This document shows, in pieces, positions 1 to 17,444 of a stretch of 19,211 nucleotides of DNA. A model generated the notes under the pieces. The model did no database searches and was not told the DNA's origin. It saw only the letters and a program-made list of their open reading frames with translations. Where the stretch lies: IMG/VR virus record IMGVR_UViG_3300048670_001104; one strand, 5' to 3'. The first letter of the stretch is position 1. Each line of letters opens with the position of its first letter. A program made the translations under genes and the position numbers. The DNA comes from a virus. Its lineage: Duplodnaviria; Heunggongvirae; Uroviricota; Caudoviricetes.

Positions 1-2758
1 CATCATCGTCATCCATGTTTTCTTTGATGTAGTCGTAGATCATTTGTTCACTGTCTGACTCCCACCGAGAGTCAAATGCTTCGGATTGCCAGTCTGAAAA
101 ATCAGTCATCATGCTGTCGATCAGGCTGTCAACACTTCTGCGGGTGTTGTAATCACCGTCATAGAAAAAGTCTCGGATGTCTCTGGGGCTGCTGGCCCGT
201 TCATCTGAGTCGTAGTCAGGTTCCAGATCTCCGCCTTCGTCTTCACTTTGAGTATTGGGCACGATCATCTCAAATTCCATGCCGGCCAAGGCACCTGTTT
301 TGGCTGCTTCTTTTCGCAGGTTCTTACCACCCATGTTGATCTCAAACAGGTCCTGCTCTTTGAACTCACGCAACAGTTTTTGTAATCCTGCTGTGAGTAA
401 CGCAGGATGACCTTGTGAGTCTGTTTGTAATCCCAGTTTGTTGGCTTCTTTGCCCACAGCACCGGGACGCACATCTTTAGTTAGTGCCATAACGAATCGT
501 GGATCCCGAGCCTGCTTCCGCGTGGGGATGTAGCCTGATGCTTCGGACATGGTCTGCTCTGCGAATCCCATACCCTCGGCACCATACCTTGCATTGTCTT
601 GGGCTTTTAAATGTTCTAATACCGCAGGTAAATTATCAGTCTGTTGTATTTTCCACCCTTGCTTTTTAATATATGCAAATGGATCAGTTATGCGTTCTTG
701 CTTGATCGGGCGTCCCGGATTGCTGCTGAAATATTCACCGCTGGGCTTCTTCTCAAAATTTCCAGCATCAAAAACAGTGAGGTAAGATTGTTTATTTTTC
801 AGTTTAGGTATATCATTCTTGTCAAACCACACAGTGGGTTGTCCAGGACCATACTTGGCCACATACCGAGTTTCTGCACTGCTGCCAGTTGCATACAAGG
901 CGGTGAACAGTGGATCGCCGGCAAAAACTCCTTTAGTAGTATTAGTTTTAAGATTTTTATTCTTCCAATAACTATCGTCACCTGTGTCTACACCACTTTG
1001 GCTCCAATCGTCGGTGTGGCGGTAAGTATTCATTTTGGTAGAGAAATTACGGATACGATGCGGATCAATTCGAGTAACTACCGCAGTTTCATTGCCGATG
1101 CTTTCTTCCAGTGTAGCACCATCAAACATCTCGGGCTGTTCTTCTGCCCAGTCTCGCATGATACGACCGGCCATGGCATTGGCTTGATCTTCATACGGGC
1201 TACCAGTCTCACCTGCATCTGCGGGCAACGGACTCTTTTCGTCCTGCTGACGATGTGTCATCTCATGTGCCATGGTGCGAAGTATATCCAACACATGGCG
1301 ATTGGCAGTGGCCAAGATCAGTGTGTTGCTTTCTGGTTGGTATTGACCAAAACTGCCATTATCTTTGCTCCATTCCGGAGTGGTTTCCAACCGCAGTCTA
1401 GGTGGATTCTCTAACTCTAACTTGCTCACACAACTCCGGTAGAAACGATGCAGGATCTTCTTCAACTGATCTGGATCTACTGATTCCATGATGCCCGGCT
1501 TTGCAAATTTCGACAAGGCGGCCTGTGCCACTGCTTTATAATTTTTAGGATGTAGTCGATCTCCAGTGGTCGCTACATCAGCAAGACTCACATAAGCATC
1601 CCCACCAATGGCTGACAGCACATCGTCGCGAGCCGTTTCATAGAAAGGCAATATCCAAACATATTGTTTGGCTTTGAGAACATCTCGTATGCGACCGATA
1701 TTTTGTATCGTGGCCTTGCGGTTGGGGTTCTTGCCGCCGCCCTTCAAAATAGCATAATCATTGGTTCCGGCACTAACAATGGCCACATCAGCACCTTGCA
1801 CCTGGGGATTTGAACTAGCCGCATCAAGGATTTGTCTAGTGCTACGACCCACCACTGCTTCGTATGGTAGACCAGCAGCCTGTGCGATGCCCACGGCGAT
1901 GCTGTCTCCCACTACCACAATCCGGGGACCACTCACTGCTTCATCCACTTGCTCGGATTCAGTGCCGGCAGGATGATCTTGGCCAGCATAGGCTGTGCCC
2001 GGGAACCAGTAATCACGCATGCCATAATTCACACGCTTGCGAGGCTTGAGTGATTGTTCTAGACTGAGTTCACGATCACGAATGGCTGTCTTGGCATCTT
2101 TCAATCGACCAATGCAACCCATGTTCCGCAACAGTTTAAATGTGATATTCTCGCAGCCAAACTCGCCATTCTTTTCCAGGCCAGTTTTACGCATGTCCTT
2201 GATGCGATCCCACAGTCGATTGATGGCATCTGCATCACCCGATTCAACAGCGGCATGAATACGAGCGTCAAGATCTGCTGTTTTGTTCTGTACACATGAA
2301 TCATCTATCCGAGCTCGTCTGCGTTGTGGAACTTGATTCCAATCACCATTCTTTACACTGTAGATGCCTTGGCTCACATGTTTTTGATCCGCCGGCTGCA
2401 CATACAGTTCCACGGGCACGCCACCAATCCGGATGTCATGTTCGTCATTATATTGGTACTTTTTGGCGTTGAACAATTCCTGATACACAGGATCGTCAGG
2501 CATTTCTACCACAAGGTGTAGATCAATGTCGGAGTGGGGAGTGTAACTATAGGCAGCATTGCTGCCCGAGATGGTGATGTCCTGGACCGTGAGATCATCC
2601 ACGCCCAGGAACTCTTGGAAATCTGCTGCTATGGCCTGAAGTTTCTCTTGCACCTCTGGCAACAAGTGCTCGTCTGAACCCCATATTCTAGGGTTCAGAC
2701 GGCTATGGAATTTTACAGCATCGGCGAGATTAAAGTTGTCAAGATCATGGAAATTCAT
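1..2758 (-). CDS. Large multidomain (polyvalent-type) protein, >919 aa, 3' end beyond the window edge: Pol-beta-like nucleotidyltransferase + SGNH/GDSL hydrolase + HEXXH metallopeptidase + unknown module + putative amidoligase N-terminus
   Basis: Manually translated. ATG at 2758, bounded by an upstream in-frame TAG (2762-2764). No in-frame stop down to base 2, so the ORF track omits it. Motifs: ISGSNAAY..SDIDLH (G65/S66, D77/D79); VVGDS(284-286)..GTND(331-334)..DRLH(400-403); AHEMTH(498-502)..YEDQANAMAG; AGMEFE(826-830). TAAATA lies 4 nt upstream. Confidence 0.92.
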   Translation of the reverse strand, partial: MNFHDLDNFNLADAVKFHSRLNPRIWGSDEHLLPEVQEKLQAIAADFQEFLGVDDLTVQDITISGSNAAYSYTPHSDIDLHLVVEMPDDPVYQELFNAKKYQYNDEHDIRIGGVPVELYVQPADQKHVSQGIYSVKNGDWNQVPQRRRARIDDSCVQNKTADLDARIHAAVESGDADAINRLWDRIKDMRKTGLEKNGEFGCENITFKLLRNMGCIGRLKDAKTAIRDRELSLEQSLKPRKRVNYGMRDYWFPGTAYAGQDHPAGTESEQVDEAVSGPRIVVVGDSIAVGIAQAAGLPYEAVVGRSTRQILDAASSNPQVQGADVAIVSAGTNDYAILKGGGKNPNRKATIQNIGRIRDVLKAKQYVWILPFYETARDDVLSAIGGDAYVSLADVATTGDRLHPKNYKAVAQAALSKFAKPGIMESVDPDQLKKILHRFYRSCVSKLELENPPRLRLETTPEWSKDNGSFGQYQPESNTLILATANRHVLDILRTMAHEMTHRQQDEKSPLPADAGETGSPYEDQANAMAGRIMRDWAEEQPEMFDGATLEESIGNETAVVTRIDPHRIRNFSTKMNTYRHTDDWSQSGVDTGDDSYWKNKNLKTNTTKGVFAGDPLFTALYATGSSAETRYVAKYGPGQPTVWFDKNDIPKLKNKQSYLTVFDAGNFEKKPSGEYFSSNPGRPIKQERITDPFAYIKKQGWKIQQTDNLPAVLEHLKAQDNARYGAEGMGFAEQTMSEASGYIPTRKQARDPRFVMALTKDVRPGAVGKEANKLGLQTDSQGHPALLTAGLQKLLREFKEQDLFEINMGGKNLRKEAAKTGALAGMEFEMIVPNTQSEDEGGDLEPDYDSDERASSPRDIRDFFYDGDYNTRRSVDSLIDSMMTDFSDWQSEAFDSRWESDSEQMIYDYIKENMDDDD

Positions 2759-2762
2759 GATC

Positions 2763-2768
2763 TATTTA
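2763..2768 (-). promoter_or_regulatory. Late-promoter-like TAAATA motif, 4 nt before the ATG at 2758
   Basis: Minus strand reads CGATAAATAGATC-ATG. Matches the core of the T4 gp55 late promoter TATAAATA and recurs before many genes here. Confidence 0.65.
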
Positions 2769-2771
2769 TCG

Positions 2772-3719
2772 CTATTCAGCAGTAGCGGTTGTCTCTTCAG
2801 CAGTAGCGGTTGTGTCTTCAACCTTCTTGTTGGTAGCAATCACTGTGGCTTCCACAGGTGTGGCAGGTGCATCTAACTCGGCTGCCGCAGGCGTTGGCTG
2901 CATCACAATCTGTGGTTGGTTGGCTTGATTGGCCAAGGCAATTTCATGCAGATCTGCATACAGTTTGTCTTGTGTTTGGTAATCAAACACATAGGTGCCG
3001 GTGTGCTTGAGCAGCACACGCTTGTCCACAAACACTTGACCGCCAATATCACGCCAGTTTTCACAGAAGGTCCAGTCTTCACTGTAGTAACGATTTTCAC
3101 GCACTGCTGTGTCAAAGTAGGTTTTCATGTAAGGATTCAACACAGGGTCCAGACCAATGTCATTGATAAATGGCTTCACAGCAGGATGTGCATTGAGTTT
3201 CTCAAACACATCGCGCTTCATCAACAAGAAACCTGTACCGGTCTTGGTCACCTCAATCAAGCCTGATGGATCATTCTGCTCGGCACCGGGAATTCCATTA
3301 ACACACCACTTGACCGGCAGGCTTTTCATGGGATACAATCCACCCACTACATCTTTGTCGTGATTCAGCATGACCAACAAGTGCCAAGGTTCCCAGCCAA
3401 TGTCAGCGTCCACAAACATCAAGTGCGTGGATTCTTTGGTGTGCAGGAACTTGGCAGTGAGTGTGTTTCTTGCACGGGAGATCAGGGATTCATTGGTCAT
3501 GGTCTCCACAGTCCAATCCAGGCCCAGTTGGCGTGCTACATTGGCCCACTTGATGTAACTCATGAATGTAGATTCTGTGAGTTGTCCCCCGTAGCATGGC
3601 ATGCATATATGAACTCTTGTGGTTTTCAAGTAGTCAATGTTGACTTGGATGCTTTGTTGACCATTTGCTTGATCCACAGGGGATGCGTTCTGGTAAGGTA
3701 ATTGTTGTTCGTCTGCCAT
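2772..3719 (-). CDS. GT-A fold (GT2-like) glycosyltransferase with low-complexity A/T/E/P C-terminal tail
   Basis: 315 aa. VHICMPCY N-terminal strand, SLISRARN, HLMFVDAD (DxD motif), VVGGLYPMK, GTGFLL, SEDWTFC. AAAGGG SD-like sequence before the ATG. Confidence 0.8.
   Translation of the reverse strand: MADEQQLPYQNASPVDQANGQQSIQVNIDYLKTTRVHICMPCYGGQLTESTFMSYIKWANVARQLGLDWTVETMTNESLISRARNTLTAKFLHTKESTHLMFVDADIGWEPWHLLVMLNHDKDVVGGLYPMKSLPVKWCVNGIPGAEQNDPSGLIEVTKTGTGFLLMKRDVFEKLNAHPAVKPFINDIGLDPVLNPYMKTYFDTAVRENRYYSEDWTFCENWRDIGGQVFVDKRVLLKHTGTYVFDYQTQDKLYADLHEIALANQANQPQIVMQPTPAAAELDAPATPVEATVIATNKKVEDTTATAEETTATAE
2775..2816. repeat. 21-nt tandem repeat, 2 copies with 1 mismatch, encoding DTTATAE/ETTATAE
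   Basis: ttcagcagtagcggttgtctc followed by ttcagcagtagcggttgtgtc, then a partial ttca. Confidence 0.9.
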
Positions 3720-3742
3720 AAGGCCCTTTCAATGTTGTAGAA

Positions 3743-3748
3743 TATTTA
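3743..3748 (-). promoter_or_regulatory. TAAATA late-promoter-like motif upstream of the glycosyltransferase
   Basis: Intergenic. Minus strand reads CATTAAATATTCTAC, 23 nt before the ATG at 3719. Confidence 0.55.
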
Positions 3749-3775
3749 ATGGAGTATAGCAGGCCGGTAGAATTT

Positions 3776-5389
3776 CTACGACCTGGCTTCGTCCAGATAA
3801 TCTTCCATCATGGGCTGATTGTATTTGCGTTGATAACTGGCCCGCAGGCCGCCTTGACTCATCTGGCGTGTGACTTGTTCAGCCATGCCTTGTTCGCCAA
3901 TCTGACGATATTCAGTGGGCCAATCAAAAACTATATTGTCGTATGCATCAAACACACCTTCAAGATAATCTCTCAATTCGTCGGGCACACGCTCTTTGCT
4001 CCAGTGACGGGGCATTTCTGCATCAGGACCATACCACAGTTTCCAAACGTCGGGAGTCCAGTAATCTAACGCATCACTGTCTAGATTGCCTGCTTTCTGT
4101 AATGCTGGTGCAACAGACTTATATCCCTCTCTGTTGGCCCAGTGAGCGAAGATTTTATGATACGGCTTGTGATTTTCCACAGCCCAATGATATAGATCTT
4201 TTACATCAGTCGGCGGCATCTGTGAGTCAGGGATCCGTGGTTCTCGTTGCATCCTGCCCATCAAGTTGTCAAATCTTTCATCGCCTGTGGCCTCTGTGAC
4301 TTCTGCACTCATGGCAGATTTGATTGCTCGGCGATTGTATATAGCAAATTGCCCGGCATCATCAGCGGTGCTGGACCAACCAGGCAGATCAGGCAAAATT
4401 CTTCGTATGATTCTGGCATACAATGCTCTACGATTGGGTTCCGCGGCTTGGAAATACAACAATGCAGGTCTGGCTTTTTTCACATACTGTATTATGGCAT
4501 TGATCACAATGCCAAATACTTCTGCGGCTGACCCTGTGCCTTCGATACCCTGCTTGGCCACTGGATGTCCGCCTTTCATGTCCTGTGTGATTTGTTCAAA
4601 ACTAACAAACTTGCTTTTGTTATATACCTCATCAGAATCAAAGAAATCATATGGGCTCATTTCATCTGGACCAATGTATGGTTCCAGGAAATCCAATTGA
4701 TATCGTACTCCATTGCTGGCAGTGAAGTTGAATTTGACCATGTCTGAATCACTGGTGTCCCACTGCGAAGTTGTGTTGCTTGCCTTGGTGTCTAATACTT
4801 CTGTCAACTCCGCACCCATGGCAGTGTCCAACATTTTAACCACTGTGTTGGCCAGTTTGGGGTTCTTCTGTGTGTTGGGATATAGACTCATGACCAATGC
4901 CATGCGTCGACGCTCATCCAGTTCGGGCCATGCTGTGCGAATCTCTGTGGCTGACCGCATGCCAGGCCCAAATGTAACTGTGGGCAGATAAGCCATGTAA
5001 GCGTGTTGAGTCATGGGTGCCATGCGGTCACTCACGGGTTGCAGATATGATGGGTTGCCATCCTTCTTCGTACCGCCGGCTTGTGGTGGTTTGGCAGCGT
5101 CTTTCTCACTACGCACAAAGATCAACTGTGTGTCGGCAGGATCATAGTTCCGTGTGATTTCTTCTGCGCGGAATGGACTCTTCACTTGATAGAAATCGCC
5201 AGGTGGCACCCCGGCCAACTGTGCTAGTTTCTCTTTTAGTCGGAATGGAAATGGGCGATTAGAAGTGTCGTTGGTGGCTGCCACTTTGACATCAGCACCA
5301 GGAAACGCCTGCAATGCAGACTGATAAAGTGCTAGGTGACCTGCGTGAAAAGGATGGAACCCACCGGGAATGATGACTAACTGTTTCAT
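3776..5389 (-). CDS. Multidomain protein: N-terminal HxGH (cytidylyltransferase-like) nucleotidyltransferase plus two uncharacterised domains
   Basis: 537 aa. IPGGFHPFHAGH (HxGH) and SATEIR (SxTxIR) delimit a class I NTase domain (aa 1-~190). Linkers AELTE/V (195-197), AEVTE/A (364-366) and EQGMAE/Q (499-504) separate further modules. Confidence 0.85.
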   Translation of the reverse strand: MKQLVIIPGGFHPFHAGHLALYQSALQAFPGADVKVAATNDTSNRPFPFRLKEKLAQLAGVPPGDFYQVKSPFRAEEITRNYDPADTQLIFVRSEKDAAKPPQAGGTKKDGNPSYLQPVSDRMAPMTQHAYMAYLPTVTFGPGMRSATEIRTAWPELDERRRMALVMSLYPNTQKNPKLANTVVKMLDTAMGAELTEVLDTKASNTTSQWDTSDSDMVKFNFTASNGVRYQLDFLEPYIGPDEMSPYDFFDSDEVYNKSKFVSFEQITQDMKGGHPVAKQGIEGTGSAAEVFGIVINAIIQYVKKARPALLYFQAAEPNRRALYARIIRRILPDLPGWSSTADDAGQFAIYNRRAIKSAMSAEVTEATGDERFDNLMGRMQREPRIPDSQMPPTDVKDLYHWAVENHKPYHKIFAHWANREGYKSVAPALQKAGNLDSDALDYWTPDVWKLWYGPDAEMPRHWSKERVPDELRDYLEGVFDAYDNIVFDWPTEYRQIGEQGMAEQVTRQMSQGGLRASYQRKYNQPMMEDYLDEARS

Positions 5390-5395
5390 ACCCAG

Positions 5396-5401
5396 TATTT
5401 A
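5396..5401 (-). promoter_or_regulatory. TAAATA late-promoter-like motif, 6 nt before the ATG at 5389
   Basis: Minus strand reads CTAAATACTGGGT-ATG. Confidence 0.65.
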
Positions 5402-6381: not shown

Positions 6382-6395
6382 CTGTATTTATACAG
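6382..6395 (-). promoter_or_regulatory. Exact T4-type late promoter TATAAATA (6385-6392) inside the inverted repeat CTGTAT-AA-ATACAG, overlapping the clpA stop
   Basis: Minus strand reads CTG-TATAAATA-CAGT-ATG. Confidence 0.7.
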
Positions 6396-8658
6396 GCAAT
6401 GGCACAGAGATTTCTGTTTTCACCGCAGTCTCAAACTCAATCTCATCGCCATTCAACACCACATTCAATGTGCAGTCGGTCAATTGATCAAACAAGATAC
6501 GCTTTGACAGCGGCACACGGATCAATTCATCAATCTTGCGATTCAACGGCCGAGCACCCATCTTGGAATCATAACCCTTTTCTGCCAGCAATTCAATCAC
6601 AGGCTCTGAAAAGAACAATTTAATATTCTTTTCCGCCACACTTGATTTGAGCTGATCCAAGAACTTCACCACAATCTTCTTGATGGCCAGTGTGTCCAGC
6701 TTGGTGAACTTGCAGATACGATCAATACGATTGCGTAGTTCTGGGCGGAAGAACTCTTTCATGGCACGATCTTCTTCTCCGGACTTTTCCAAATCTGTTG
6801 AGAATCCAATGTTGTTGTTTTCATTGTCTCGCGCACCCAGATTGCTGGTCATGATGATGATGGTGTTCTTGCAGTCCGCTCGCTTGCCATTGGCACCTGT
6901 CACATGACCCTCGTCCAGCATCTGTAGCAGGATGTTGGTAACATCACTGTGTGCTTTTTCGATCTCATCAAACAAGATCACAGAGAATGGATGCTTGCTC
7001 AAGTCCGAAATCAGTTTGCCACCGCCCACATTGCCATCTTCAAATCCCACATAGCCCGGAGGTGCACCAATCAGGCTGCTGACAGAGAACTTCTCCTGGA
7101 ACTCACTCATGTCATAGCGCAACAGATGCATGTCCAGATTCTCACTCAACAGCTTGGCCAATTCAGTTTTACCTGTACCTGTTGGGCCCAGGAACAAGAA
7201 TGACGCCATGGGCCGGTTTGGAGTACCAATGCCCGAGAAGTTGATGTACACACGCTCTAACACAGCATCCACAGCAGTTTCTTGACCGTACAGCTTCTGC
7301 TTGATGTTTGATTCCAGGTCCACTATCTTCACACTGCGCTCATTCTGCAGTCGATCTGTGGGCACACCGGTCACACGAGACAACTGTTCTTCGATCATGC
7401 CTTTGTTCACAGTGGTCATACCTGAATCTTTCACACGCTCTCGGGCACAGGCAGCGTCCAACAAGTCAATTGATTTGTCAGGATTCTTCTTGTCATGGAT
7501 GTATCGGGCTGCTAGATCCACAGCGGCAGTCATGGCCTCTGTGTCGATCAGCACATTGTGGAATGCTTCCAATCGTGGTGAGAGTCCGATCAAGATCTTC
7601 TCAGTGGTGTCACGGTCCGGTTCGTCAATTGACAACCTGTAGAAACGGCGCATGAGGGCACGATCTTTCTCGAAACTCTCGTAATACTCTTCCCATGTGG
7701 TCGACGCAATCACCTTCAAGTTGCCCTTGGTGATGGCAGGTTTCAACATGTTGGCAAAGTCCAGGCTGCCTGAACTGCCTGCCCCTGCACCTTTCATGGT
7801 GTGTGCTTCATCAATGAACAAGATCGATTTCTTCTTGCTTTCCAGTGCAGAGATTACTGCTTTGAACTTTTCTTCAAAGTCGCCGCGATACTTGGATCCT
7901 GCCACAAGACTGCCAATCTCCAGGCTCCATACTTCGTGATCCTTCAAGAACTCGGGCACACGGCCCTGTGTGATCTCTTGTGCCAGTCCTTCGATGATGG
8001 CAGTTTTGCCCACGCCCGGATCGCCTACCATGAGCACATTGCTTTTGAATCGGCGTGCCAACACAGCGATCATTTCTTCTAGTTCTGTAGCGCGACCAAT
8101 TAAGGGTTCCAGTCGATCTGTCCGGGCCAGCGTGGTGAGGCTGGTGCAGTATTCTTCCAGCACTTCTGTGGCCTGTTGATCATTCATACCAGCTGACTTT
8201 TCTGACTTGTAATGACGTTTCCAGAACTCAGCAAATTCGCCCTTGGTCACTCCAAACTTCAGCAAGAAGTAGTGTGCATGGCTGTTGGTTTCACTCATGA
8301 TGGCCAGATAAAGATCTATGGTGACGATCTGTCTGCGTCCCGAAAACAGCACTTGCGTGAGCGCACGGTTGAACACACGCTCCAGGCCCTGCGTCTTGCG
8401 TGGTGTGGCTTCGCCATCTGTTACCAGACTCTGGCAACTGTCGAGATAGCCGCACAGTTCTGTTTCCAGCATGGCCACATCGCAGCCAAATTTGTTTAGG
8501 GTTTTGCGAAATGGTTCGTGACGTATCAGGCTCAACAACAGATGTTCTGTGAGCACATATTCATGCCGCCAGGTTCGTGCGATGGTCACTGCGCCTTCGA
8601 TGATGGCGTCGATTTCGGGATTGTCTTGCATAGCGTTTTGTCCGTGTGAGTTGCTCAT
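6388..8658 (-). CDS. clpA: ClpA-like Hsp100/Clp AAA+ ATPase
   Basis: 756 aa. Clp N-domain (HEYVLTEHLLLSL), NBD1 GDPGVGKT and ILFIDEAH, NBD2 GPTGTGKT and ILFDEIEKAH, GAPPGYVGF pore loop, NIGF ClpP-docking loop, GARPL. No ClpB-type long middle domain. An alternative start at ATG 8631 (MQDNPE) is plausible. Confidence 0.93.
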   Translation of the reverse strand: MSNSHGQNAMQDNPEIDAIIEGAVTIARTWRHEYVLTEHLLLSLIRHEPFRKTLNKFGCDVAMLETELCGYLDSCQSLVTDGEATPRKTQGLERVFNRALTQVLFSGRRQIVTIDLYLAIMSETNSHAHYFLLKFGVTKGEFAEFWKRHYKSEKSAGMNDQQATEVLEEYCTSLTTLARTDRLEPLIGRATELEEMIAVLARRFKSNVLMVGDPGVGKTAIIEGLAQEITQGRVPEFLKDHEVWSLEIGSLVAGSKYRGDFEEKFKAVISALESKKKSILFIDEAHTMKGAGAGSSGSLDFANMLKPAITKGNLKVIASTTWEEYYESFEKDRALMRRFYRLSIDEPDRDTTEKILIGLSPRLEAFHNVLIDTEAMTAAVDLAARYIHDKKNPDKSIDLLDAACARERVKDSGMTTVNKGMIEEQLSRVTGVPTDRLQNERSVKIVDLESNIKQKLYGQETAVDAVLERVYINFSGIGTPNRPMASFLFLGPTGTGKTELAKLLSENLDMHLLRYDMSEFQEKFSVSSLIGAPPGYVGFEDGNVGGGKLISDLSKHPFSVILFDEIEKAHSDVTNILLQMLDEGHVTGANGKRADCKNTIIIMTSNLGARDNENNNIGFSTDLEKSGEEDRAMKEFFRPELRNRIDRICKFTKLDTLAIKKIVVKFLDQLKSSVAEKNIKLFFSEPVIELLAEKGYDSKMGARPLNRKIDELIRVPLSKRILFDQLTDCTLNVVLNGDEIEFETAVKTEISVPLPV

Positions 8659-8705: not shown

Positions 8706-9485
8706 TTATTTGGCAGATTCCTGCTGTATAGCAGCCAATAATTCTTCAGGTATCTGTGTGGGGATCTCGGCCTGCATGCGTACCAGCATGTCACCCCGGG
8801 TGCCGGATCGATCCGGAAATCCCCTACCACGTGCTCGCAACAGGCTGCCGGGCTGTGTTCTGGGTGGGATGCTGAGCTCAATCCTATTACCTCGGATGTC
8901 CATCATGGTCATAGTACCACCGGAGATCAATTTCCAAATACTGGTCATATGTTCCACAGTGACATTGTTGCCTGTGCGTTGCCAGATTCGGTCTGGATGG
9001 ATTCGGAATGTGATCACAAGATCCTGCCCGCCAGGGCCCAGTCCAGAAAACTGCACATTGTCGCCGTCCTGTATACCATTGGGAATGGTGATTTCAATGT
9101 TGTGTGTGCCGGTATTGGTACCCATGGCCACCACTCTAGCACCGGGATTGGCCACATCTTGCGTGGTTATCCACAAGGTCATCCTGGCATGGCCACGCTG
9201 CTGTGGTTGTTGGAATTTGGCACCAAACATGTTGAAGATTTCATTGAAGTCAAAACTCTGATGGAATCCTCCTGCACCCGGTGGCATCTGAGGTTGCGGA
9301 TTGTTATAAGCCGCACGTTTCTTGTCATCGCCCAGTGTGTCGTAGGCTGCTTGTATCTCTTGGAATTTCTTTGTGTCCCCGCCCTTGTCCGGATGATGCT
9401 GGCTGGCTAGTTTTCTAAAAGCCCGTTTGATTTCATCGGCTGAAGCGGTGCGGGCAACACCCAGTGTGGCGTAATAATCAGTCAT
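8706..9485 (-). CDS. dnaJ: DnaJ/CbpA-type J-domain co-chaperone (J domain + DnaJ C-terminal domain, no zinc finger)
   Basis: 259 aa. DYYATLGV..EIKRAFRKLASQHHPDKGGD (HPD motif), short G/F region, C-terminal LRARGRGFP..GDMLV. Confidence 0.9.
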   Translation of the reverse strand: MTDYYATLGVARTASADEIKRAFRKLASQHHPDKGGDTKKFQEIQAAYDTLGDDKKRAAYNNPQPQMPPGAGGFHQSFDFNEIFNMFGAKFQQPQQRGHARMTLWITTQDVANPGARVVAMGTNTGTHNIEITIPNGIQDGDNVQFSGLGPGGQDLVITFRIHPDRIWQRTGNNVTVEHMTSIWKLISGGTMTMMDIRGNRIELSIPPRTQPGSLLRARGRGFPDRSGTRGDMLVRMQAEIPTQIPEELLAAIQQESAK

Positions 9486-14487: not shown

Positions 14488-14493
14488 TATTTA
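14488..14493 (-). promoter_or_regulatory. TAAATA motif upstream of the kinase/NTase gene
   Basis: Intergenic. Minus strand reads CAGTAAATATCCC, followed by a GGGGAAG SD-like sequence. Confidence 0.55.
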
Positions 14494-15651: not shown

Positions 15652-15657
15652 TATTTA
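15652..15657 (-). promoter_or_regulatory. TAAATA motif 4 nt before the ATG at 15647
   Basis: Minus strand reads CGGTAAATAAGGC-ATG. Confidence 0.65.
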
Positions 15658-17438: not shown

Positions 17439-17444
17439 TATTTA
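17439..17444 (-). promoter_or_regulatory. TAAATA motif upstream of the fibre gene
   Basis: Intergenic. Minus strand reads GAATAAATACC, about 40 nt before ATG 17398, with an AAAGG SD-like sequence in between. Confidence 0.55.

Follow-up and report, generated by a model that had tools for sequence, protein, structure and literature searches.

We describe two cassette-built genes in a 19,211-nucleotide stretch of viral DNA (Caudoviricetes; IMG/VR record IMGVR_UViG_3300048670_001104), referred to below as the window. Every gene across 1 to 17.4 kb of the window lies on the minus strand, as do all modules and joints listed below. A giant open reading frame (ORF) occupies 2..2758 on that strand, where it encodes its first 919 amino acids before its 3' end passes the window edge, and a second cassette protein of 537 amino acids is encoded at 3776..5389. 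Both proteins are divided by short [LIVM]-x-Glu motifs, here called joints, and the joints fall at the borders of the cassettes.

The part of the giant ORF within the window encodes, in order, a nucleotidyltransferase, an SGNH hydrolase, a zincin, a DUF6886-like cassette, a basic module of 67 amino acids and an amidoligase. Its nearest relatives are 2560 and 2547 amino acids long, with an extra deaminase and further modules. Module A (residues 1 to 230; 2069..2758) resembles nucleotidyltransferases of the Pol-beta/AadA type (phrog_36119, E 7e-44), with a weak match to PF01909 and AadA among its fold matches. It also occurs as a free-standing protein of about 230 amino acids in cyanomyophages, Maribacter phages and Lak phages (tblastn); when the giant ORF was searched by tblastn against 50,697 phage records, relatives were found for the first 240 residues only. 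Module A is followed by a disordered linker (residues 231 to 273; 1940..2068) that ends in QVDE at E273, with predicted local distance difference test (pLDDT) values below 50 at residues 231 to 276 and a homology break at 273 to 275. In other subclades, 79 of 165 giants carry at residues ~256 to 342 the element (P)DGV(S/N)P(S/T)T(K/Q)MFLxE in place of the window's YGMRDYWFPGTAYAGQDHPAGTESEQVDE linker. This element lies between module A and the zincin and is duplicated in tandem in some giants.

The cassette from A274 to E425 (1484..1939; end IME) adopts an SGNH/GDSL hydrolase fold in the model. It matches 7e16_A with a Z score of 11.2 over residues 275 to 421 (root mean square deviation 3.2, 147 aligned residues), and contains GDS inside VVVGDSIAVG and D-x-x-H inside GDRLHP. 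Its Pfam score, 14.7 bits, is below the cut-off of 32.9. Judged by its modelled fold, residues 274 to 425 are a predicted SGNH esterase. Foldseek searches with the whole 919-residue model returned mostly flavodoxin-like matches to this part, VIA-align clarified the SGNH and zincin parts of the giant model only, and a sequence search of the PDB for solved structures gave nothing usable. Module Z (S426 to E552; 1103..1483; end LEE) is a zincin-like metallopeptidase with HEMTH followed by E523. It is present in all giant-family relatives, and H498, E499, H502 and E523 are nearly invariant. The match to PF20573 (E 0.008) is under the cut-off, and the fold matches 1oz9 with a Z score of 8.7 over residues 429 to 539. 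The predicted zincin looks catalytically intact.

Behind the zincin lies a DUF6886-like cassette (S553 to E739; 542..1102; end MSE), for which PF21820 gives E 0.041 here and 7.5e-5 in the relative P0124. It is missing from most relatives. In the giant of L004, the relative that is 93% identical, the cassette stands at residues ~2000 to 2185, about 1450 residues further on than in the window, a clear case of cassette movement within one gene. An assignment of residues 553 to 739 as an ADP-ribosyltransferase (ART) was considered and stays a lead only, with Atlas leads below 0.9 and DUF6886 under its cut-off. Module C (A740 to E806; 341..541; end LFE) is the conserved basic module of 67 amino acids (ASGYIPTKKQA...); it has a Glu joint on both sides and is modelled as disordered. 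From I807 onward (INMGG...GMEFEM; 2..340) begins the amidoligase arm, which is cut by the window end after its first 113 residues. PF12224 (cut-off 22) matches P0124 at 25.5 bits and P0125 at 27.4 bits, both being full-length relatives, and is among the precomputed annotations of most homologues.

The 537-amino-acid protein consists of a NadD-like adenylyltransferase, a GNAT-like module, a helical module and a conserved tail. Residues 1 to 197 (4799..5389; end LTE at E197) resemble NadD/NMNAT adenylyltransferases and contain GGFHPFHAGH and SATEIR. NadD structures are the top Foldseek matches to this region (E 1e-4; Rossmann fold), and PF01467 scores 19.3 bits, under its cut-off of 21. Across the family, 61 columns are invariant in residues 1 to 188, and E197 is conserved in at least 90% of members. 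The cassette from V198 to E366 (4292..4798; end VTE) has a GNAT-like fold and is DUF6934-like, and the helical cassette from A367 to E504 (3878..4291; end MAE) is missing or replaced in many relatives. In P0228, P0233 and P0235, the cassette behind the NadD-like module is an HD domain of the RelA/SpoT type (PF13328, E 5e-17). The predicted combination of the two domains points to nucleotide-signal or NAD-related functions.

The C-terminal tail of this protein (Q505 to S537, QVTRQMSQGGLRASYQRKYNQPMME/DYLDE/ARS; 3779..3877) is conserved over 33 amino acids. The motif phi-x-E..DY-phi-x-[ED] lies within six residues of the C terminus in 109 of 119 family members, with D530, Y531 and E534 invariant, and the tail is kept whichever cassettes come before it. 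It is a candidate for a targeting, docking or cleaved peptide. The closest relative of the giant ORF contains an internal string, DDFMAE/DYESMVE/A, that resembles this tail.

A first-pass annotation of the window had listed ten [LIVM]-x-E motifs and placed them at domain junctions, and all ten were recovered at the positions it gave. The joints of the giant ORF are SEQVDE/A (E273; VDE at 1940-1948), PGIME/S (E425; 1484-1492), TLEE/S (E552; 1103-1111), TMSE/A (E739; 542-550) and DLFE/I (E806; 341-349). Those of the 537-amino-acid protein are AELTE/V (E197), AEVTE/A (E366), QGMAE/Q (E504) and, in the tail, MME/DYLDE/ARS. The bare motif is frequent: the giant ORF contains it 11 times and the 537-amino-acid protein 8 times. 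Six of the 11 are not at junctions: E35, E38, E85, E715 and E913 lie in modelled helices or strands, and E798 lies in a low-confidence region just ahead of E806. The annotation had itself cautioned that a three-residue motif is common and also occurs inside domains.

Domain borders were set by three measures that are independent of the motif: homology breaks, low-confidence linkers in AlphaFold models and the extent of the SGNH fold. BLASTP relatives (120 for the giant ORF, 119 for the 537-amino-acid protein) align to the giant ORF in blocks q1-275, q425-555 and q732/736-919, leaving breaks at 273-275/425, 552-555/732-740 and ~796-806, the last being an additional insertion point in other relatives. 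The corresponding breaks in the 537-amino-acid protein are at q197, q354-370 and q504. Relatives without the SGNH cassette read ...QVDE|S(A/T)DPDQLKK, and those without residues 553 to 739 read ...TLEE|ASGYIP, indicating that each cassette runs from the residue right behind one Glu to a Glu of its own. In the models, pLDDT falls below 50 at residues 231-276, 419-426, 547-558, 731-777 and 795-810 of the giant ORF and 192-206, 361-394 and 464-537 of the 537-amino-acid protein, and every junction Glu lies inside such a segment. Indeed, 12 of the 19 motif copies in the two proteins fall in low-confidence residues, which make up 24% of the total (binomial p = 3.5e-4). For these two proteins, this is an enrichment in linkers of the kind that the first-pass annotation had proposed to score genome-wide. 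Finally, the SGNH fold match at 275 to 421 fills the cassette from A274 to E425. All three measures thus converge on the junction Glu, in agreement with the earlier claim that domain junctions carry the motif; its position is non-random, and the joints are cassette borders.

Both families are large and come from metagenomic sequence. At E <=0.001 the giant family has at least 677 matches, all metagenomic proteins, and the 537-amino-acid family at least 3367; members lie on contigs of up to 364 kb from lake metagenomes. Complete giants in IMG/VR range from 562 to 2560 amino acids. Their common scaffold comprises the nucleotidyltransferase, the zincin, the basic 67-amino-acid module and the amidoligase, and deaminase, GNAT, GH19/LysM, M48 and other cassettes vary between and behind these modules.

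The joint pattern is kept in these relatives at the borders of variable domains, as an alignment of homologues proposed by the first-pass annotation confirmed. For the giants, distinct sequence contexts were counted among 80 non-redundant members. Ahead of xSGYIP, Glu stands at -1 or -2 with a hydrophobic P3 residue in 47/51 contexts. Ahead of NFADG, Glu is at -1 in 15/15 contexts, with V, L, I or M at P3 in 14/15, and all 28 contexts ahead of INMG carry L-x-E, mainly LFE (28/28). In the 537-amino-acid family, [LIV]-x-E occurs within nine residues behind the NadD-like module in 92/92 distinct tails. Among 26 distinct continuations behind this module, P3 is V in 16, L in 9 and I in 1, and P1' is variable (G, V, Q, F, A, D, S). 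Similarly, about 55 of about 55 distinct listed contexts ahead of the conserved tail end in x-x-E, nearly all with V, M, I or F at P3 as judged by eye. A profile of the ends of high-scoring segment pairs (HSPs) around the joints gave a fourfold peak at offset 0 (0.06 vs 0.015). HSP ends are fuzzy, and cassette insertions and the sequence logos of module starts were analyzed in place of this profile. At 268 cassette borders defined by insertions, 107 left and 102 right borders have a motif copy no more than 10 residues away, compared with 66 +/- 7 for random positions.

The letters of the joints differ (ELTE, EVAE, GLNE, QVDE, SLTE and others), and the DNA of the ten window junctions has only the Glu codon in common, so that selection acts on the peptide pattern rather than on DNA. 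A conserved DNA recombination site at the joints was considered and is ruled out for the window by the same comparison. Cassettes are gained, lost and moved among relatives, even between the two genes. The SGNH cassette is absent from most relatives and is exactly deleted in P0007-P0025, and cassettes common to both protein families occur in different phages at up to 66% identity, indicating that both genes form one system. The exact deletions, moves and exchanges between the two genes seen in relatives match the earlier suggestion that domains are swapped like cassettes between the joints.

Further evidence comes from signal peptides in the relatives; the window's own two proteins carry none. 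Among 284 proteins, 9 of 14 distinct internal uncharged hydrophobic stretches start 3 to 8 residues behind a joint, and these stretches show a basic n-region and an h-region followed by AxA or a lipobox, as in ...EVDE/GIKSKLAAGALGAALALGAGGAKAQ and ...QLEE/SLKNKLAGAAAAACIAGSPGC. Three Tat motifs stand directly behind VDE/ or VAE/. Position 1 of the Pfam TAT_signal model is the residue right behind the junction motif, with scores of 22.1, 21.7 and 19.8 bits (cut-off 22.7). Because signal peptides need a free N terminus, internal ones that begin at P1' argue that the chain is cut there. Internal Sec, lipoprotein or Tat signals located hundreds of residues into the chain are found in the giants of L032, L045, L037 and L015 and in P0079, P0104, P0111, P0122, P0209 and P0227.

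Judged by sequence, the source of the window is an uncultured T4-type jumbo phage, and its relatives are T4-type. A head module of the T4 type is encoded by G001 (364 kb, with terminal repeats), by G002 (349 kb) and by G004 (332 kb), all complete or nearly complete relatives. In it, a portal and an acidic core protein accompany Peptidase_S77 (the gp21 family), a gp22-like scaffold and a Gp23 capsid protein. Peptidase_S77 scores 81 to 84 bits in these three (cut-off 27). G009, whose giant is 81 to 85% identical to that of the window, has Peptidase_S77 at 87 bits together with a Gp23 capsid protein. Every related record with a T4-type capsid gene also has a prohead protease of the gp21 (S77) type. 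G003 (343 kb) and G005 (262 kb) contain neither an S77 protease nor a Gp23 capsid gene; as the capsid gene is missing too, the head module lies off those contigs, and they have no bearing on the absence of the protease. The proposed search for a prohead protease gene therefore succeeded in G001, G002, G004 and G009, and the window's own gene was not seen. The capsid proteins of the relatives contain ...YLKE/NASSG about 25 residues ahead of ILPVIRR, which we take to be the place of the T4 gp23 maturation cut. The first residues of their proteases, MKYLQE/ or MSSKYLRE/, are reminiscent of LIE-9, a site in T4 gp21 (PMC9026906).

Between the two cassette genes lies a glycosyltransferase-like gene (2772..3719, minus strand; 315 amino acids; phrog_1574, weak Anp1), whose product has a Thr/Ala/Glu-rich repeat tail ending in ...TTATAEETTATAE; this placement is kept in relatives. 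Upstream of the cassette genes are a ClpB-like AAA+ protein, a DnaJ-like gene, a lysis cassette, two virion structural genes, phoH and a radical-SAM gene. The ClpB/ClpA-like double AAA+ protein and the DnaJ-like protein (6388-8658 and 8706-9485, minus strand) hold the same place, a few genes upstream of the cassette proteins, in the distant relatives L001 and L002. They may be chaperones for the giant chains or may be unrelated to them. No relatives at the DNA level were found among phage records by megablast with 6 kb of the window. Exact look-ups of both proteins also returned no match, and a 40-mer matched nothing in IMG/VR and just one contig, of 2.3 kb, in JGI metagenomes.

The first-pass annotation had placed both cassette genes directly behind TAAATA, and the motif lies 4 nucleotides ahead of the ATG of the giant ORF (2763-2768, minus strand) and 6 nucleotides ahead of that of the 537-amino-acid gene (5396-5401, minus strand). 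The window has 11 copies of TAAATA compared with 6.2 expected, 9 of the 11 being on the coding strand, and when read against the ORF list the majority of the coding-strand copies are just upstream of start codons. Start-proximal copies on the minus strand are at 2763-2768, 3743-3748, 5396-5401, 14488-14493, 15652-15657 and 17439-17444. Three copies are just 4 to 6 nucleotides ahead of an ATG, leaving no space for a ribosome-binding site; TAAATA this near the start could reflect leaderless late mRNAs or a motif with a different role. The T4 late promoter is TATAAATA, and by analogy TAAATA may be a late promoter here. With TAAATA ahead of both genes and lysis and virion genes close by, the setting looks late.

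The chains are probably cut into separate enzymes, most likely in the capsid for delivery to the next host. In the mechanism that we propose, a gp21-type (Peptidase_S77) prohead protease would cut the [LIVM]-x-Glu joints and so split the chain into individual proteins, one per module. If T4 Alt and the internal proteins are a guide, cutting would take place in the prohead, and one late gene would supply a changeable enzyme kit, packed into the capsid and passed to the next host along with the phage DNA. With its own C-terminal joint, each cassette could be inserted, lost or moved without loss of processability. Each of these steps (cleavage of the joints, the role of the prohead protease in it, packaging, injection) is our inference, and our confidence in the whole series, from cutting in the prohead to injection of the packaged modules into the next host, is about evenly balanced. 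The first-pass annotation's reading of both proteins as capsid-packaged polyproteins is in this sense partly sustained, by the cassette build, the joints at borders, the S77 protease in relatives and the signal peptides at P1'. It is possible, on a more tentative footing, that the cuts also unmask N termini, so that pieces cut in the capsid and injected would be sorted by the export machinery of the new host to the cytoplasm, periplasm and outer membrane.

Several observations weigh against capsid cutting and delivery. The S77 gene was seen in relatives and not in the 19-kb window, and the relatives are all metagenomic and known from sequence only. P3 is non-hydrophobic at a minority of joints (QNE/S, ANE/S), and since an upstream joint is passed on along with the conserved module, the counts are not fully independent. 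The signal peptides behind joints would also fit export in the producing cell. Neither protein has a T4-like N-terminal targeting propeptide, there being no [LIVM]-x-E before residue 35 of the giant or residue 53 of the 537-amino-acid protein, and both N termini lie inside the first folded domain (E35 and E38 in a modelled helix; the 537-amino-acid protein starting with a Rossmann strand). As a matter of speculation, targeting might instead reside in the 33-amino-acid tail of the 537-amino-acid family and the basic disordered 67-amino-acid module of the giant. Lastly, a zincin that looks catalytically intact is universal in the giant family and is itself a possible processing enzyme.

This last point leads to a different protease. 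Module Z could cut its own chain and, in trans, the 537-amino-acid protein, leaving the prohead protease uninvolved. The near invariance of HEMTH and E523, the presence of the module in every giant-family relative and the constant neighborhood of the two genes are consistent with this, and autoproteolysis by such domains was proposed by Iyer et al. 2017 (PMC5512222), citing P1 DdrB. However, the 537-amino-acid family has the same joints without a zincin of its own, and the predicted capsid-protein maturation site of the relatives has the same form. A conserved Glu at P1 and a hydrophobic P3 with a variable P1' follow the rule documented for head proteases of the S77 and phiKZ types, whereas zincins usually read P1'. 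The free P1' and the zincin-free family with the same joints lead us to rank the embedded zincin lower, as an unlikely processor. The site of cutting may also differ, in that a prohead or other late protease could act in the cytoplasm of the producing cell, with the pieces working there or being exported to the envelope rather than serving as cargo. The absent N-terminal capsid-targeting peptide and the adjoining lysis cassette would suit such a scheme, and in a living cell, fragments with signal peptides unmasked by cutting would reach the periplasm by way of Sec, Tat and Lol. In addition, prohead proteases are reported to be able to cut cytoplasmic CD-NTases late in infection (PMC12991175). 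Yet it is in the assembled prohead that T4 gp21 becomes active (PMC9958956), and the repertoire of zincin, deaminase, GNAT, GH19/LysM, HD, NAD-related and ART-like modules is typical of injected polyvalent effectors (PMC5512222). Since takeover-type enzymes made late best suit the next infection, as T4 Alt does, we regard action in the producing cell as improbable.

The chains might also stay uncut, with the joints serving as flexible acidic linkers or tolerated places of in-frame recombination in intact multi-enzyme proteins. Some polyvalent proteins, among them the N4 virion RNA polymerase, ArdC and TraC1, undergo no processing on delivery (PMC5512222). Linkers are often Glu-rich, and the motif by itself says little, given that modelled helices or strands hold 5 of its 11 copies in the giant ORF. 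Against this, the hydrophobic P3 is kept at nearly all joints despite differing letters and DNA, and the conserved 33-amino-acid tail is fenced off by a joint. Signal peptides that start at P1', 200 to 600 residues inside a chain of cytoplasmic enzymes, would be useless without a new N terminus. We therefore consider intact chains quite unlikely, and the prohead protease acting at the joints during capsid maturation the preferred explanation.

In the papers cited here, we find no description of cassette borders that all carry a defined, conserved joint fitting the head-protease rule, of cassette exchange at such joints, including exchange between two genes, or of the conserved C-terminal tail and signal peptides placed for unmasking by a cut. 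If the joints are cut, tailed double-stranded DNA phages make use of polyproteins, a strategy linked until now with RNA viruses. The output of a single late gene would then be a swappable set of NAD-related and nucleotide-related enzymes, together with an esterase, a peptidase, a deaminase, acetyltransferases and wall hydrolases. The rule would predict the mature products of uncultured jumbo phages, now annotated as one "hypothetical" giant protein, and the joints would be a natural source of cleavable linkers with which foreign proteins could be packed into capsids of the T4 type. The system would also permit a direct test of the processing of polyvalent proteins, a question standing since 2017. 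If sorting by the new host occurs as well, the phage would deliver a protease-programmed "secretome" from cassettes freely exchanged between genes and phages.

The likeness to RNA-virus polyproteins is functional, in that one product is cut (here, as proposed) at short conserved sites by a viral protease into enzymes. The systems are unrelated: here the virus is a double-stranded DNA tailed phage, the protease belongs to another class, and the products would serve as cargo and not in replication. Among phages, phiKZ, 201phi2-1 and SPN3US (gp175/gp245) have many head-packaged proteins that are cut behind Glu, sometimes at several sites each (PMC10052503, PMC5694885), the rule for SPN3US gp245 being A-X-E (PMC10052503). 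In contrast to the series of enzymes proposed here, phiKZ-type cuts mostly remove propeptides, at A/S/G-x-E, and free no enzyme series from one chain; cassette exchange at cut sites, seen here at the joints, is not described for these phages. T4 is nearer in its protease. T4 gp21 cuts behind Glu in L/I-X-E and trims Alt at both ends (PMC9026906), and Alt and the internal proteins IPI-III (PMC9026906, PMC9958956) share with the present system the S77 head module (in relatives), the fit to L/I-x-E and late-made enzymes. In the models, the junction Glu residues lie in low-pLDDT linkers with V, L, I or M at P3, as predicted for exposed sites of the L/I-x-E type. T4 cargo proteins are single-domain with a short N-terminal propeptide, whereas here enzymes are chained and lack one.

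The polyvalent proteins of Iyer, Burroughs, Anand, de Souza and Aravind (2017, PMC5512222) likewise combine many unrelated enzyme and effector domains in one polypeptide, with a zincin-like peptidase and extreme domain shuffling between relatives. Packaging in the virion and entry alongside the DNA are predicted for them, and it was suggested that proteolysis frees their domains, as we propose here. Polyvalent proteins hold 2 to 15 unrelated domains in one polypeptide; the giant ORF has at least six modules in 919 amino acids, includes the hallmark zincin domain (from sequence and model, with its activity predicted) and shows mosaic architectures among close relatives. That study proposes the embedded metallopeptidase as the processor, and its text uses "prohead" once and neither "amidoligase" nor "linker"; here, defined and conserved [LIVM]-x-E joints match the head-protease rule. 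Also unlike polyvalent proteins, the scaffold of nucleotidyltransferase, zincin, 67-amino-acid module and amidoligase is specific to the giant family, and a second, zincin-free protein has the same joints.

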